DNA of 63,526 nt, filler included, from Kipferlia bialata (taxonomy: Eukaryota), in the NCBI GenBank assembly GCA_003568945.1. It is 4 parts of 3 records of this genome, joined end to end, with 100 filler letters (N's around TTAATTAATTAA, not from the genome) between each part and the next. Parts side by side here need not be neighbours in the genome. Positions count along the whole stretch, not along the records: positions 12,964 to 31,095 come from BDIP01000074.1; 3 more parts are not named here. One strand, written 5' to 3'. The position numbers were made by a program, and so were the translations under genes. The first letter of the stretch is position 1; every line of letters starts with the position of its first letter. Of this stretch, positions 14,935-62,510 are shown piece after piece. The notes beneath the pieces were generated by a model that saw nothing but the letters and a program-made list of their open reading frames with translations, had not been told where the DNA came from and did not search any database.

Positions 14935-16222
14935 CTATATCTCGCTGAGGGAGCACGACTCTGGTGCGTCTGTGAATATGACCAGGAAGTGGCCATTGGC
15001 AAAGGACCCAGGGGACACTATGGAGGTCGTGTTCTCACAGGACGTGTCCTCGGGTGGGTAGTTGATCTTGCGCTGGAACTGGGGCAGTGCGTCTGCAAGG
15101 ACCACCACGTGTGGCAAGGGGTAGAGCGACATGGCGTGGTGGTACTGCCCCACCACTGCCCGACACCGAGGGGGCAAGGGGTTGAGAGTGGCCTGGGAGA
15201 GGAGGGTGTTGCAGAGGAGCTCTGCTGTCCCCTGGGCCTCGTCCTCATCTACCTCCATACCGGTGTCCTCAGGGGATGTAGATGCACCCCCTACCCTGGC
15301 ACCGGGTGTGTGCGGGTCCATGATGATGTGGCGCCTCAGGGATGCTAGGGTGTGGTCCCTGTGTATCACAATCTCCCTGTGCAGCACTCTCAGTCTGCAT
15401 GGGTTGTGGGCCATGGTGCACCTGGCTAGGACCTGACAATGAGTACATATAGTGTACATATAGTATATGATGATCTGGCAAGGACCTAAGTGTCAGGATC
15501 ACTCTCAGTGTATAACATTTGACTATATATGTATATGTCCATACCTCCTTGAGCATGTCGGTACTGACAGCAGGGGGCAGGGGTCCACGGGGCAGCACAT
15601 CACCTAGGGTAAGACATTGTAGGGACTATACACACTATATGATATGGAGCTATAGAGTATAGAGTATTTACTATATAGTATACATGCAACAATACATACT
15701 ATATACTATATACTATGTATACTGACCTGATAGGGTGGCGTCATCGGGGCCAGGTACAAACACAACGTGGCTGCTGTTGGAGATGTCCACAAACCTGGGG
15801 TAAGAGAGAGACAGGAACATTTCTTAGCTATACGATGTGGATAGGCAAGCCACCAAGTGAAAGCCACTTTCTGTGCTAACACATTCTATATATACATACA
15901 TTCTAGATACCTACTGAAGAGTCCCGCCAGCCATGTAAATGCCTCCTTGTACTCCCCCAGTCTCAGCCACACGGGGGAGGTGGAGGGGGAGAGGTAGTTG
16001 CCACAGAGGACTAGCACAGTGGGGATCATGGGGGCATCAACCAGCCTGCGAGATGAGAAAGAGAGACAGGAAATAGGAAATGAGAGGGTATAGTCTATAT
16101 ATTACCTGTCAAAGAGGCTCTCGAGTCTCTCCCTCCCTGCCTGTGTGTCCAGGACAACGTCACTCAGTACAAAGGTGGTGGTGTCGCTAAAGGAGTTAAC
16201 ACCTGGGGTTAGAAGTATGCAG

Positions 16223-17562: not shown

Positions 17563-17674
17563 CTAGGGTAAGGACTTCTGCAGAAGACAGAATTATATAT
17601 ATACTAATACTTGTGAAGAGACAGTTGGGGGGGGGGGGGGGGGGGGGGGGGAAAAGAAAAAAGGGGAGGGGGGG

Positions 17675-17711
<37 letters not shown>

Positions 17712-18801: not shown

Positions 18802-21800
18802 TCATAGCCCAGTAAAGAAGCCCCCGTGCACATCCATCATGTGCCCATAGACTGGCCCTTGTTCATCTGATACGAACCCACAGACGAAGCACCAGTGCTT
18901 ACCACAGTGGCAGGTGATGTGGTTGCAGTCCTCAGGGTGGTCCTCGTCCTTCATCACGGCCACTCCGCAGTGGGGACAGGTCCGCCTGAATCTGGACAGG
19001 ATGCGGAACCTGTTCAACTCCTGGTCGAGTTCAGCAACAGCATGGTCGGCACTACGGTCACCGGTACCCACGGTGATGCCCTAGAGTCAGAGATGGCAGA
19101 TGGCAGGTAGATATTGGTAGTGATGGAAATACTACGTACAGCGTGGTCAAATGAATCCCTGAATGCCATTTCAAGGTTGTCTAGGCAGCAGGATGGAATT
19201 GATATGGACGCAGTACATAGATGGGCCGTTGGGAGGCCGAGCCGAGCATCGGTGACATCGAGCTCGAGGGTGATGGGCTGAGGAGGGAGGATGGGGGAGC
19301 CACAGCCAAACACTAGTAGCCGTCTTAGCAGGGTGATGTCCTCCCTCTCCATCTGCTCCCTGACAAACGCGGTGAAGTTAGTCAGAAGCTGCTGGCTCTC
19401 CACACGGAAGCATGCACCGTACTCATCAGCTGTGAAGGCTCCAAAGCCTAGGGAGAGTGTAAGGAACTGTTCCAGTGACAGGGCCTCGACACGGGTTTCC
19501 CACTCTGGGTGGAGGGAGTTGAATCCCTTCCGCATCTCTACTACTGCCTCTAGGAGCAGGCGCACATACCCGGCCTCAAACTCCCTGGCAAACTCTGTCT
19601 TGTTGTCTTCGGAGAGCACCTTGTCAGATGAACAGCCAGGGATGTCGGAGAATGGCAGCTGCGTGAGAAGATGTCAAAGGATGCTGTACATACACATCAC
19701 AATAGACTGACCTCTACTGGGTTCTCAAGGAGTCTGAGCAGTGTCCTCCGCTGCTGGGGGAATGTGGCAGCAAAGAGGTGGGACACTAGGGCCTTGTCGT
19801 GCAGGATCTTGTTTGGGTTGGCCTAGGGGTAGCGAGTTAGCAGTGGGCAAAGAGAATTTGACATTGGATTGGTGTCAGATGTATATATGTATTCACCTGT
19901 AGTCCTGCCATCACCAGCTTGCCGAACATGCCACGCTCTATGGGGCTCTCGGACATCTGGAAGGCTAGAAAGCGACCCAGACAGGCATATGGCACTGTGA
20001 ATGCAGCCAGAGTCTCGGTGTCACCAGCCTCTCGGGCTTCCTGGGGTGAACACGTGATGAAGTATCTCTTGGAAGGAGTAGTACTGTTACCTGCATTAGG
20101 ATACATGCACTGACGGAGGGCCCCAGTGGGAATGTAGTATCCCCGAGAGGCTCGAAGAGTGCAATGGTCTCTGTGCCTACTGTGATAGGTCTAGACAGGT
20201 CTGCGAGAAGGGACCTCAGAGGAGTGTTGTCTGCATCATCCTGGTTGGGCAGCACCAGCTGAGCGTAGCCCTCCATGCTGGGCTGGGGTGGAAGAGCAAA
20301 GTGCACTGTCAGAGACTCGACTGAGCACTCGACGATAGGGGCATTGTCCTTGAGTGCCTCAAGTGCTAGGGTGAGGGACGACGTTCATGGCTCTTGTAAC
20401 TAGAACATAACTACTCCTAGACTAGTTATAATGTGTTACCACCTGTCCACTGATGTTCCAGTATGGCTGTGTACTTCTGGGCGGCAGAGGCCGAGACAGA
20501 AGGCGAAGATAGTACAGGAGAGAAGAGTCCTCTGTTGAGGAGATGATAGGCCCCGACCCGGCCAGACTTGGGACCGAAGCATGTCTGAGTAAGTAGTAAT
20601 TCCAAACCGCAGGCTTTAGGACGTAGTGTCAATTGGTGTATATACTACAAATATACGAATGCAGTGCACACCTTGATCATGTCAATCTCGACGCTGGAGA
20701 GATCTGCTGTGGCGAACTCGGGTACTGGATATATGACGAGGGTGGGGGTGAATAGCCAGACAACAACCTAGTTGGTGAGTAGTCGCAATCCAGTCATTCA
20801 TTAGGAAGGTCCTAGAGTGGCATTTGGCTCATACCTTGCCCATGGAGTATACGTCAGACAGATGGCAGAAGTGCATGTTCGGGCCTATTGAGTGCTCCAT
20901 GTCGATGAAGCCTATCGTGCCAGCACCCTGAGGTGTTGGAGAGACAGGCCAATAACGGTCATTAGCAAGGTTTACTAAGTGGCTGCACCCACCTCTCTCT
21001 GTGTCTGCCTGACCGTAGCAATATAGTCTTCCTCGCTCTTGGATATGTCAAAGTCTGTCAGGGCCACTCCTGGATGATGAGAAGAGAGTTGGGCAGGATT
21101 GAGCCAACAAAGGTCCTCACCTGTGACAGTCCCGTCCTCCTCATGGTTGACCAGTATGTTCTGAGGCTTGATGTCCCTGTGTAAAATGTGGCAGGACTCG
21201 AGGGCAACCATTGCCTCGATGACCTGGAGTAAATGACATACATAGTAATCAGATCGGTGTTAGGCTTGCTTCCACATTACCAGTTGATACTTCGACTCCC
21301 AGAATCCTTTATCACACGCACCTCGTGCATGATGTGCCTCTTCACTGCTGTGGTGGGCGGGAACCTCTCCACAAACTGTGCCAGGTCACACGAGTACCTG
21401 GAGGTAAATGTATACGTACATGGATGAGACGCTTGCACTGCAGGGCATGCACAAGGTCCCACCTCTCCAGGATGATGTAGCAAGTGTTGTCCTCCACCAA
21501 GAACCCATGGCACCGGACCACGTTGGGGGTATGCACACGGCTGAAGACTGCCAACTCTCTACTGACACTGCAGAGCTGGCTGTGGTTCCTGAGAGTGAGG
21601 GGGAGAAGTAGATACTGAGCTCGTGATGGGACCTCAAAAAACTGGACCAGTATACTATACTGGTAGTACCACCTCATGTCGTATGCCTTCAGAATGACGG
21701 GCACATGGGAGTCTGGGTGGATCCCTGGCGTGAAGGGATTAACTGTAAAGAGGCGAAGAGGAAAGGTACCTGAGAGCAGAGTGATCCTTGGGGATGTGTG

Positions 21801-24460
21801 GAACTCTGCAGCCTGGAACTGGGTGACACTCCTGTCGCAGAAGAGGGACACATAGGCTGAGAGGGCGGTGTTGTCCAGAGGGTGTGTAAGTGGGAGAGTC
21901 TTCAGAACATCTGGCTATGAGACTATTCATCTGCTGCCGGAGCAGTATTGACATATATATAATCAAATATTTATAGCATATACGATCTATAGCATACATG
22001 ATGTATACTATTTGGAGGGAACCCACCTGCCGCAGCTGGAAATGACCTGTAACGCTGTAGTCTCTCAATTTTGGCTCGTCTCTCAGCGTGAGCCGCAGAG
22101 CTTGTTGCGATCTCCTGGTCTAGCTAGGGTGAGGATCACACAAACTTGGACAAGAAGACCTACTTAGGGTACTGTTGCCACTAAAGAATCAAGCCAATGA
22201 CCCGTTACCTGCCCAATGCTGTCCCGAATTGAGGCCATGTCAGCCTCTGGTACTCTGCGCCTGCTGAGACGGCTCTTGAGCTCATCTCTAGTGTAATGAT
22301 AGTGAGAGAGGTTACTATACTGTCAGGAACGATGTAAATGGTGCTCTCTCTCAGGATTGGGCTTCGTACTGAGTATCCTTTAGGATAGCATACCTCTTGT
22401 CCAGCAGTTCCTCGTGACTCTGAATAGGAACTGGAGGGTGGTTCTCCAGCCAAGAGACAAGGTCATGGATGTCCTAGAAGTGAGAACACCAGAGAGATAC
22501 CATTCCACCTACAGTGCACCCACATATAGTATCGTCGTAATACGTATATTTCGGCTAACACTTCACCTTCTGGTCCTTGGCCAGCAGGGACAGGTTGAGA
22601 AGGGTGCGCTGGGCCTCTCTCTCAAGCTTCTCACAGTCCGATACATCAGGAGGAGTCAGGTCCTTGATGGCGTTCACACACGCATCAACCTGAAGTTGGA
22701 TATATATGTGGTGTTACGGTGTGTATTGATAGTACTGGCGATTTCTTTACTGCCCTCGCTCACCTTTGCCGCCAGGGAGATGAGAATCGTGGCTGCCTTA
22801 AAGACGCTTGCCACCTCAGTGTTGTATTCCTGGGCCTAGAAGTAAGATATCCTTGTACCCACTACTCTAAAGAGAGACAAAGGGGTGACCTGAAAGAACT
22901 TGGCCATGTCTGTGAGAGAGAGATGGGAGGGGTCCATGGGAAGGGGGACAAGTCGGATCTCCTTCAGTCCTGCTATAAGGGCTCCTGCAGTACGCACTAG
23001 TTTCATACTCCTCTCAGGGTCCAGGATGCGTCCCTTGTAGTATAGGAGGGCTGTCGTGAATTCTTCTACAATGGCCAGGAGACTCGTGTGGAGGGCGGCA
23101 CAGTTACTCTCCTTGAGGGTGGGGAAAGGGGGTCTGGCTAAGAACTCTTTGAGCTCACCCAGCGCCGCACACATACGAAGGGCATGAGGCGTGAATGCAA
23201 AGAGGTAGTTCACCGTGGGTCCCACTTGAGATGGATCGAAGGCAGTGATGTTGGACTTGGGTGAGTTGAAGGATATATGTGTGTGTGCACATGGGCGGTC
23301 GTTGCGGCACATATGCATTGATGATAGCGACTTCACTATAACTCTATACTATAGAGTCTATACCCCACTCTGAATACCTTGAGTGTCGCCAGTGCAGACA
23401 GCTGATTGGCTGAGAATGCGTCAAAACGGGTGTCAACGGCGCTTGATAGTGCCTCGAGCCGAGACACTCTGGCAGTGATGGCCTTCGCCTGGTCTTCTAG
23501 GGCCGTCGCGGCAAGATGCTCATTAGACAGGCCAACATGGAGAGATCGCACATGATCAGACAGAGCCCTGCCCAGCGCTAAGGCTCCTTGAGGCGTCTCC
23601 TCCATCATCTCTAGCAGACGCAGGGCCCTGGCCAGAGGGGAGAGCCTCAAGGTCTGCTGTATGAGGTCATGGACGGGAGTCCTCACCAGGGTCACGTTCA
23701 TCTGAACGTCAGTCTAGATATGTTCTCATGCTCAAAACGGTGATGCACTCTACTGACATTATATATATCTAACATTATACTGATACTATATATGATACAT
23801 AGTTTCACATTCAAAGAGAGGCATTAATGGTAGTATTAACAAGTAACTATTTCAGGATATTGTATTCAGAAGTACAATGCAATGATCACATATTGCAGCC
23901 CTTACCTGCATCAACCTCGGTGAGCGAAGAATAGCTACAACCAGGGGTCTTCCGACTGAGTCTGGTAAGGGGGAGGAGTGGATATGGAGCTGGAGTGGGT
24001 CGAGAAAACAAATACCTATATATCGTGAATACTGCAAGCTGATACCGTGGTGAGGTTCAGCATGTGGGGCAGGTTCTTCGCGAGGTCCTCGATGGCCTCG
24101 CCGTCGAAGCAGGCCATTCCAGTATCCAGCTCTACCAGCCAGTCCATCCGCCCCAGCATGAATGCGAAGCACTTCCCAGACATACCGGTGAAGTCGTGGG
24201 ACTCGATGAACTGAAGTCAAGGATGATCAGAAACGTAAGGGACATAAGATACTCCTGTTACATGGGGCCTGTATGACTTCTAGGTACGTTATTGTCATTA
24301 AGTTAATGACTCATTAACCCTAGCAGCGTACCTTGAGAGTCGTAATTCTTTCTCTGGACACACGTATCAGCTCTGTTAGCCAAGATCCAGATTGTCCAAC
24401 ACTCGCCATCATGTTACGGAAACCTTCGATATGAGGGGCCTCAAGTGAGTCACGCTCCAT
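18802..24460 (-). CDS. Multidomain protein: helical N-terminus + protein kinase + HECT domain + C-terminal RBR-type Rcat/RING2 domain
   Basis: Kinase motifs: VILK, RELAVF, HRDIKPQNILV, TDFDISK, GTIGFIDME, SDVYS. HECT motifs: LFEP..RYFI, LGRFLA, RRLLVFGCGSPILP, LPTAHLC. A phase-0 intron joins this to RTCPHCGVAVMKDEDHPEDCNHITCHCGKHWCFVC. Stop at 18802; putative ATG at 24460. Confidence 0.8.
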
Positions 24461-60980: not shown

Positions 60981-62510
60981 ATGTTTGAGGCACACCTGGA
61001 GCAGGCTTCCACGCTGAAGAAGGTATTTCATCTATTCGTCATTTTCTGGATATGTGGGATGCATACCTGACCTTCCAGATGATCGAGGCTGTGAAGGGCC
61101 TGGTTAACCACGTGAACATCAACTGCAACGAGCAGGGCATGTCCATCCAGGCTATTGACACTAGCCACGTTGCTCTTGTCTACCTCAAGCGTACGTTGCT
61201 GTGTTATTGACTCTTTTGCAAAACCCGCTCAATCCTACTCACTCTAGTCCGTACCGAGGGATTCGCTCTCTACAACTGCGAGAAGAGCATCAGCCTTGGA
61301 ATCAGCATGGATCACCTTTCCAAGATCCTCAAGTCTGCTGCTAACAACGATACCGTTATCATCAGGTATTGGTGAAACAGTCATTCATGGCCTCGCTGTC
61401 TCTTTACATTTGTCCAGTTTCCGGGACGGTTATATGACGTTTCTGATGTATATTTAGTTACCATTCCACCTCTGCATCCATGTATGTGTATATATTTGGT
61501 AGTAGTGAGTGCAATGGGTGACGCTCATTTGTGCCGTTTCCCTCTTCCGCCACACTATTCACATTTCAATGTCACTGTCTTTCCTCTGCCACATCTCACC
61601 CCTAGGGCCGAGGACGAGAAGGACTCCCTGCACATCATCTTCCAGCCACAGGACGAGAAGAGGGTGTCCACCTTTGAGCTCAAGCTGCTCGACATCGACA
61701 TCCCCCAGCTAGTCATCCCCGTCACTGAGGTAGGGCATGCCGGGACAGGGCTAGTGGGCAGCACACGACTACATGTTGTGTCATGAGTCTCATTGATTCT
61801 GCTTCCTTATTACCAATATATTTTTCACTCATGTATATACATGTCCACCTCTCTGACCCCAGTTCACTGCCAATGTCACCATTGCCTCTGGTGAGTTCCA
61901 GCGTATCTGCAGGGACCTCAACGCCCTGGGTGAGAACGTGTCTCTGTCCGCCAACAAGGAGGGAATGCGCTTCAGCGTTGATGGCGAGACCGCCTCCGGC
62001 TCTGTGCTCCTCCAGGTAGGACCCTCTCTCTCTGCTTCCCTCTCTCTCTACCTTGTTAACCCCAGCCCACCGACAACGTGTCTGACGAGGAGAGCGGCGC
62101 CAACACTGTGGTGCAGATCAAGACCCCCGTGGAGCAGTCCTTCCCCCTGCGCTACATGCTGTCCTTCGCCAAGGTATGGGGACATATAGTATATGTCAAT
62201 CTCATACCCCTAAGACCCCCCCCCCCCTTCCCTCACCCCTAGGCCACCCCCATCTCCGACATTGTCACCTTCGAGATGGCTGATGACATCCCCCTTGCCG
62301 TCACATACCCCATCGAGGGCCAGGGCTTTGTCAAGTACTTCCTTGCCCCCAAGATCGATGGAGGCTCCGACGACGAGGGAGACGAGGATGAGGTGGGTTC
62401 TGGTGGTGTATACCCTTCACCCTTTGTATTTATATATGTGTGTGTATATGCCGGCTCCACCACCCCCTCACCCCCAGGGCGATGACGAGGGCGACTCCAT
62501 GGAGGACTAA
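60981..62510 (+). CDS. PCNA: Proliferating cell nuclear antigen
   Basis: [73 protein letters not shown]. Confidence 0.98.

Follow-up and report, generated by a model that had tools for sequence, protein, structure and literature searches.

Fusion of kinase, HECT and Rcat domains in a Kipferlia bialata protein family and a possible two-cysteine ubiquitin relay

According to a pan-eukaryote survey, HECT-type ubiquitin ligases (E3s) carry the HECT domain at the C-terminus, with no C-terminal shuffling in any eukaryote (PMC4327156). Kinase-HECT fusions are known in Naegleria and Ectocarpus (PMC3673628), and the catalytic triad of the RBR ligases has been described (PMC3940038). A relay of ubiquitin between two cysteines has a precedent in MYCBP2 and has been proposed for LUBAC (PMC9527308). 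MYCBP2 combines a RING with a tandem-cysteine zinc domain, and the two RBRs of LUBAC are complete and sit on different chains; a HECT is absent from both systems. Here we describe KIPB_000611, a gene of the free-living protist Kipferlia bialata (assembly GCA_003568945.1) in which kinase, HECT and Rcat domains are fused in one spliced reading frame on the minus strand. All coordinates are positions along the whole stretch of DNA analysed (the window, 63,526 nucleotides, nt), in which the gene lies on the part taken from BDIP01000074.1. The domain order is a helical region, the kinase, the HECT, a linker helix and the Rcat, and the principal features are as follows.

18802..24183, minus strand: whole gene, 23 exons, 1198 amino acids (aa), identical to KIPB_000611 (P0001) by exact spliced mapping with 22 GT-AG introns
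20498..21881, minus strand: protein kinase domain, residues 465-738 (Pfam Pkinase, E 1.6e-21; VIA Z 24.5)
19075..20491, minus strand: divergent HECT domain with N-lobe and C-lobe, residues ~741-1108 (Pfam, Foldseek, VIA and structural model)
19215..19217, minus strand: HECT active-site Cys1081 (PTAHLC), invariant in 10/10 complete family members and present in 13/15 that cover the site
19139-19081, minus strand: HECT/Rcat intron, phase 0, 59 nt, gtacgtag..ctgactctag (spliced protein mapping)
19075..19077, minus strand: Ile1108, at the site of the HECT '-4 Phe' (from the spacing to the Cys and the preceding Gly)
19003..19050, minus strand: linker helix ending ELNRFR, equivalent of the IBR-RING2 helix of RBRs (helix 1117-1128 of the model; aligns to the parkin pre-RING2)
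18826..18978, minus strand: Rcat/RING2, residues 1141-1191 (Pfam IBR, 28.6 bits; RING2 alignments; VIA match to RNF216)
18919..18927, minus strand: Rcat catalytic Cys1158-Asn-His1160 (residue conservation across the family)

The protein was retrieved by a search with the HECT exon, and every residue was placed on the window between 24183 and 18802, with introns of 45-204 nt (median 74 nt). The original prediction, made from the DNA alone, was of a kinase spliced in frame to a HECT domain with PTAHLC and then to an Rcat, and this is what the deposited KIPB_000611 encodes; the motifs PTAHLC (with Cys1081), CPHC, DCNHITCHC, WCFVC and DFD are all found as it described them. Its HECT-Rcat intron was right in phase and boundary sequences but misplaced by 1 nt (19140-19082 instead of 19139-19081). 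The start codon that it proposed, the ATG at 21930, had to be rejected, as this codon sits within an intron (22026-21911) and the gene reaches at least to 24183; the N-terminal part beyond that start occupies ~2.2 kb and encodes ~455 residues, or 38% of the protein. It had also named intron retention as an observation that would count against the fusion. Retention of the 59-nt intron would shift the frame and bring in a stop after 41 codons, leaving a tail without a HECT-like end, and the junction sequence recurs in 10 paralogs; the last exon, which encodes the Rcat, has no Met upstream of the first zinc pair. Pfam and structure searches, proposed at the same time as checks, back both the HECT and the Rcat. 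Scanned as single exons, the domains score 25.0 bits for HECT (Pfam cut-off 23.9), 28.6 for IBR/Rcat (24.3) and 31.7 for Pkinase (31.7). A tblastn search of the window gave no match beyond the KIPB_000611 gene itself.

The HECT domain shares 11-17% identity with known HECTs (NEDD4/Rsp5, E6AP, UBR5 and the HUWE1/Tom1 group). A phmmer search of the PDB with the HECT exon gave no matches at E<=10, and the family profile A2 matched RBR chains only (34/34) in the same database; the HECT identity therefore rests on Pfam and the fold searches. Pfam recognized HECT in 8/8 members of the A2 alignment at E<=0.1 (best 2.9e-10), with scores near or below the cut-off in most family members. When the C-terminal 444 residues were compared by fold, HECT domains accounted for all among the Foldseek matches listed, and ranks 1-16 of 48,161 chains in the VIA search were HECTs (Z 8.8-14.8), matched over the N-lobe and the start of the C-lobe. 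The VIA match to Tom1 had Z 14.8 with a root-mean-square deviation (rmsd) of 6.9 over 263 aligned positions, and that to E6AP had Z 12.9, rmsd 4.4 and 210 aligned. An AlphaFold2 model built from 16 rows has a mean predicted local distance difference test score (pLDDT) of 76 and a predicted template-modelling score (pTM) of 0.37, and gives the domain folds, not their arrangement. In this full model the C-lobe is folded with the HECT topology (pLDDT 63-91), whereas a first model had left it unfolded.

Around the active-site Cys1081, the two preceding residues vary among complete members, and 18 of the 101 C-lobe columns are invariant. The '-4' site lies 27 residues past Cys1081, compared with 29 in Rsp5 (C777/F806), its equivalence being judged from this spacing and the preceding Gly. 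Phe occupies this site in 0/15 members; they have Ile or Val, and Cys in one case. In the 10 complete members the chain continues for 79-90 residues beyond it (90 after I1108 in KIPB_000611), so that this HECT is not at the extreme C-terminus and no complete member has a free HECT C-terminus. Phe directly after the catalytic Cys is likewise absent (0/15), which we left out of the evidence since HECT catalytic loops vary (PMC13018541). A third cysteine, C1091 (~19187), stands 10 residues past the HECT Cys in 9/10 complete members and 12/15 overall, and could be structural or mediate a relay.

The conserved helix 1117-1128 precedes the Rcat both in the alignment and in the model and, by analogy with RBRs, may bind donor ubiquitin. 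The first zinc site of the Rcat is formed by C1141/C1144/C1163/C1165 and the second by C1170/C1173/H1186/H1191, making the latter Cys-Cys-His-His, which corrects an earlier assignment. In parkin, ARIH1 and RNF216 it is RING2 and not IBR that the domain aligns with, the catalytic cysteines being in register, and VIA matched it to RNF216 after the 16 HECT chains (Z 5.2 and 5.0; the Z 5.0 chain with rmsd 2.4, 56 aligned). Of the 14 members with an Rcat-like segment, 13 have the catalytic Cys, P0012 having lost it. The absence of RING1 and IBR noted in the original prediction held up: Pfam scans found no RING and a single IBR-type stretch only, a RING-like pattern was seen in 0/17 family proteins, and ahead of the Rcat no stretch of 50 aa has more than 4 Cys. 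By region, mean identity within the family is 48% for the N-lobe, 53% for the linker, 55% for the C-lobe and 62%, the highest, for the Rcat.

Like the HECT E3s (NEDD4/Rsp5, E6AP, UBR5, HUWE1/Tom1), KIPB_000611 has a bilobed fold and an LP-x-A-H-x-C loop; unlike them, its HECT is not C-terminal, is followed by a second catalytic domain and has no -4 Phe. With the RBRs (RNF216, parkin, ARIH1/HHARI, HOIP and protist DEAH-helicase RBRs) it shares a pre-RING2 helix and an Rcat with Cys-x-His/Arg, and the Cys-Cys-His-His second zinc site is also found in protist helicase-RBRs (P0021, P0133) and fungal RBRs, but a HECT stands where RING1 and IBR would be. Two catalytic cysteines in series recall MYCBP2 and the proposed HOIP-HOIL-1 (LUBAC) relay, a relay being a proposal here as well; unlike the RING-Cys-relay of MYCBP2, KIPB_000611 has no RING. 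High divergence of the HECT is a trait shared with the class IV HECTs (G2E3 and the GL-Bikonta kinase-HECT proteins), although the RING/PHD-like fingers of G2E3 are N-terminal, unlike the C-terminal Rcat of KIPB_000611. Thus, KIPB_000611 resembles a transthiolating E3 and yet falls outside the canonical HECTs, because its HECT is not C-terminal and lacks the -4 Phe, outside the RBRs, because it has no RING1 or IBR, and outside the RING-Cys-relay ligases, because it has no RING. The K. bialata family is a conserved and expanded exception to the C-terminal HECT rule as stated in the survey (PMC4327156), and the partner added at its C-terminus is a catalytic domain that belongs to a different class of E3s. 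This raises the questions of whether a carrier other than a RING1-bound E2 (ubiquitin-conjugating enzyme) can hand ubiquitin to an Rcat and whether thioesters can be relayed between distinct E3 folds, so far proposed for LUBAC only.

The family comprises 20 K. bialata gene models (P0001-P0018, P0022 and P0074), 10 of which are complete for N-lobe, C-lobe and Rcat. Both cysteines are kept in all 10; their spacing is 73 residues in eight and 76 or 77 in the remaining pair. N-termini are diverse, with leucine-rich repeats (LRR) in P0010 and Kelch repeats in P0006, P0011 and P0018, and the proteins reach 3325 aa. In a tree of 12 members there are two main groups (support 100/100 and 81/84), and the fusion is therefore likely to predate the expansion. 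P0012 has lost the HECT Cys, the Rcat Cys and the second zinc site. P0002 (KIPB_007035), annotated without an Rcat, is probably a mis-spliced gene model, its last six residues fitting x-R/K-R-T-C, the Rcat start, in the +1 frame. In DNA run X1, a contig with a close match to the HECT exon bears an Rcat as well. The consecutively tagged P0018 and P0016 (KIPB_000236/000237) consist of Kelch repeats with a partial HECT N-lobe and of a C-lobe with an Rcat, respectively; with no kinase, they represent a split or kinase-less member.

In a 5176-nt contig of run X2, the kinase and Rcat words are 1634 nt apart. Their spliced distance is 1592 nt in KIPB_000611, and P0003/P0004 are longer by 14 residues (42 nt), which gives 1634 nt; the 12-letter loose end of the contig encodes ELH, matching the Rcat of P0003. 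The contig reads as a fusion of intron-free length in a paralog and is not evidence of expression. In another DNA contig, of run X1, the two words are 1489 nt apart, below the 1592 nt of KIPB_000611, which looks like a paralog with an internal deletion.

The reading that we favour, tentatively and at slightly less than an even chance, is a two-cysteine relay ligase, in which an E2 would load Cys1081 of the HECT, ubiquitin would pass to Cys1158 of the Rcat, and the Rcat would carry out the ligation; we infer these steps from the architecture, predicted folds, family and conservation described above. The HECT N-lobe would serve as the E2 dock in place of the absent RING1. The E2 would charge Cys1081 and the HECT thioester would form, its own ligation being poor with the -4 Phe and the free C-terminus lost. 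In Rsp5, F806 mutations hit ligation only and leave the thioester intact; ligation also suffers when the last residue is deleted, and tags at the C-terminus interfere with activity (PMC3738095). In RBRs, RING2 makes scant contact with the E2 and Ile44 of the donor ubiquitin is bound by the preceding helix (bioRxiv 10.1101/2022.10.11.511834), whereas HECT C-lobes bind the Ile36 patch of ubiquitin (PMC13196369), not Ile44 (PMC3738095); a ubiquitin-charged HECT could thus offer its ubiquitin to the Rcat in the manner of a charged E2. The HECT would grip ubiquitin via the Ile36 patch, Ile44 would stay free for the helix before the Rcat, and the charged HECT would play the part of the charged E2 in an RBR-type transthiolation to Cys1158. 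The Rcat would then attach ubiquitin to the target, with His1160 as the base. The whole cascade, from the activating enzyme E1 through E2 and HECT to Rcat, would comprise four thioesters, and the HECT would be reduced to a ubiquitin carrier replacing RING1-IBR. If true, this would be a case in which HECT loading and HECT ligation have become separated naturally.

The original prediction had put forward two mechanisms, recruitment of the E2 by the HECT N-lobe for an orphan Rcat or a relay between the two cysteines under kinase control. Of these, the evidence leans towards a relay because the two cysteines are invariant and their spacing fixed, the ligation-specific tail of the HECT is lost, and the putative ubiquitin-binding helix has been retained. 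The linker is about as conserved as the C-lobe (53% versus 55%), and HECT Cys and Rcat Cys are lost together in P0012. With more reserve, we suggest that a 'HECT-Rcat relay' might be a new class of transthiolating E3s, represented by a set of proteins, expanded in this lineage, that combine sensor, kinase and ligase and in which the LRR/Kelch heads can be swapped.

Several observations weigh against the relay. The catalytic His of the Rcat is His in 9/13 members and Arg in 4/13; in the HECT loop, the canonical His ahead of the Cys is found in 7/10 complete members and Thr in 0/10; and P0015, a 208-aa fragment, has the Rcat Cys and no HECT Cys. Invariance of the cysteines is weak evidence, as C711 and C844 are also kept in 10/10 members and 3/15 Cys-rich columns are invariant. 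The full model, with its pTM of 0.37, has a low-confidence linker. The X2 contig belongs to a paralog, its run is RNA by guess only, and an identical joint is listed for the DNA run X1. HECTD3 auto-ubiquitinates without its last four residues and with a variant catalytic loop (PMC13018541), and tail loss therefore need not abolish HECT ligation. The HECT of G2E3 is reported to be non-functional (PMC3673628), and G2E3 is among the nearest Atlas leads (clusters at ranks 2 and 3, score 0.75, a lead only).

The alternative that we rate highest, unlikely as we consider it, is that the HECT substitutes for RING1, its N-lobe holding the charged E2 while the Rcat is charged directly by that E2 and the HECT Cys is structural or vestigial. 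RING1 of RBRs is described as an E2 dock only (bioRxiv 10.1101/2022.10.11.511834), the N-lobe has a hydrophobic small subdomain that the family conserves (F913, F917, P918, L924, F936, F960, Y964), the catalytic loop of the HECT is degenerate, and G2E3 itself has a dead HECT next to working zinc fingers (PMC3673628). However, C1081 is kept in 10/10 members and the C-lobe, dispensable in that model, is as conserved as the N-lobe (55% versus 48%).

HECTD3, with its tolerance of tail deletion (PMC13018541), also supports the less probable view of two parallel catalysts, according to which the E2 charges both cysteines and each ligates, e.g. with the HECT priming and the Rcat extending or branching chains (K63-like, as RNF216). 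The Rcat is indeed closest to RNF216, whose C-N-R motif occurs in four members; on the other hand, this Rcat has no RING1 of its own, and the -4 Phe and a free C-terminus are absent in all members.

It is improbable that the Rcat is non-catalytic (a ubiquitin- or substrate-binding module or an inhibitory cap), or that either or both of the E3 modules lack activity in a protein that serves mainly as a signalling kinase. The replacement of His by Arg in 4/13 members, the degenerate P0012 and P0015 and the low HECT scores, which in most members lie close to the Pfam cut-off or under it, would all fit, but RNF216, which by alignment has Arg at the same site, is an active ligase, the non-zinc Cys-Asn pair is kept in 13/14 members and no other region is as well conserved as the Rcat. 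Finally, an annotation artefact (separate HECT and Rcat genes, or a retained 59-nt intron), for which it can be said that the junction of KIPB_000611 rests on a gene model and that P0002 is annotated without an Rcat, is largely excluded by the same junction sequence in 10 paralogs, the lack of a Met before the first zinc pair and the frameshifted 41-codon tail, the intron-free length of the X2 contig, and the P0002 tail, readable in the +1 frame as an Rcat start.

Under the relay reading, the kinase probably tunes the activity of the ligase, and sensing or the selection of targets is probably the role of the variable LRR/Kelch N-termini. The kinase fold matches eukaryotic protein kinases (VIA rmsd 2.6, 245 aligned, with many ties). 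The original prediction called it atypical, with DFD for DFG and no clear Gly-rich loop; both features stand, yet all the catalytic residues are retained: beta3 Lys (K514), alphaC Glu (E530), H601-R-D603 with the HRD Asp, K605, Asn (N608) and D626-F-D with the DFG Asp. Across the family the DFG position is DFD in 9/13 members and DFG in 3/13, and no member spanning the region has a GxGxxG loop. DFD is found in active Mnk kinases. Judged by its residues, P0006 has a dead kinase beside both E3 cysteines, and because of this kinase control of the E3 step cannot be obligatory.

Upstream of the kinase, the following regions were mapped.

23906..24183, minus strand: residues 1-74, a possible degenerate LRR (by inspection; no Pfam match, low pLDDT)
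22027..23701, minus strand: long alpha-helical region, residues 75-455, common to paralogs (almost wholly helical in the model)
24184..24460, minus strand: possible additional 5' coding exon outside the deposited model (ATG 24460, intron 24331-24211, an in-frame phase-0 GT-AG junction, 121 nt)

The position of residues 1-74 is variable in the family, paralogs bearing LRR or Kelch there, and mean pairwise identity over residues 183-460 is 27%. A sensing or defence role for the family is speculation, prompted solely by its expansion and by how much its repeat heads vary.

A search of 1.84 billion representatives with a hidden Markov model of HECT-Rcat gave 2947 matches at E<=0.001, the best 150 of which were examined. 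K. bialata contributed all 13 matches at E<=1e-30 plus three more among those listed, and the other 134 cover the Rcat end only (profile positions >=306); no HECT-Rcat fusion from outside K. bialata was found among these best 150 of 2947. Pfam detected no HECT in 69 of the 134 Rcat-only matches, including all 67 of at least 350 aa, a weak test, as 51 of the 69 were scanned at E<=1e-5, where a HECT as divergent as that of P0001 (E 1.8e-4) would escape. The Rcat relatives listed comprise helicase-RBRs from Mastigella and Willaertia as well as RBRs of fungi and VWA-RING-Rcat proteins, which have the Cys-Cys-His-His second zinc site in common. Among the 53 with at least 300 residues upstream of the Rcat, 42 show a RING-like pattern, and so, by eye, do several of the other 11. 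Profile A2, run against a 5.8-billion set at 211-791 aa, found none among 7996 candidates, and 0/111 pattern matches in viral contigs and 0/98 in metagenome contigs were confirmed, intron-rich genes being liable to escape both searches.

Nine of the matches (P0029, P0039, P0056, P0059, P0086, P0114, P0130, P0139 and P0149) combine an N-terminal VWA with a C-terminal Cys-Cys-His-His Rcat; such proteins, of 900-1100 aa and of fungal, unnamed and possibly viral sources, appear from their domain content to be a large family of reduced RBRs. In P0138 (759 aa), possibly a further orphan Rcat, a long charged coiled coil leads up to the Rcat, and the 220 residues before the Rcat contain neither RING nor IBR. 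The rank 1 Atlas cluster consists of viral 1441-aa proteins, one member being from Nucleocytoviricota, with 2C_adapt in 63% and HECT in 43% (score 0.77, a lead only). In searches of full-text literature, subscription papers not covered, neither a HECT-Rcat fusion nor the K. bialata family was found described, and IBR occurs 0 times in the text of PMC3673628 and two of its supplement files. The family is apparently undescribed and has been seen in one species so far.

Pfam analysis of 75 other open reading frames of the window revealed no ubiquitin genes; two genes unrelated to KIPB_000611 were recognized.

14938-15492, minus strand: DNA polymerase alpha/epsilon subunit B family (Pfam E 3.8e-15)
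61376-62186, plus strand: PCNA (Pfam E 2.8e-12)

Long poly-C/poly-G tracts at 17628-17710 probably lie within an intron of the downstream gene.

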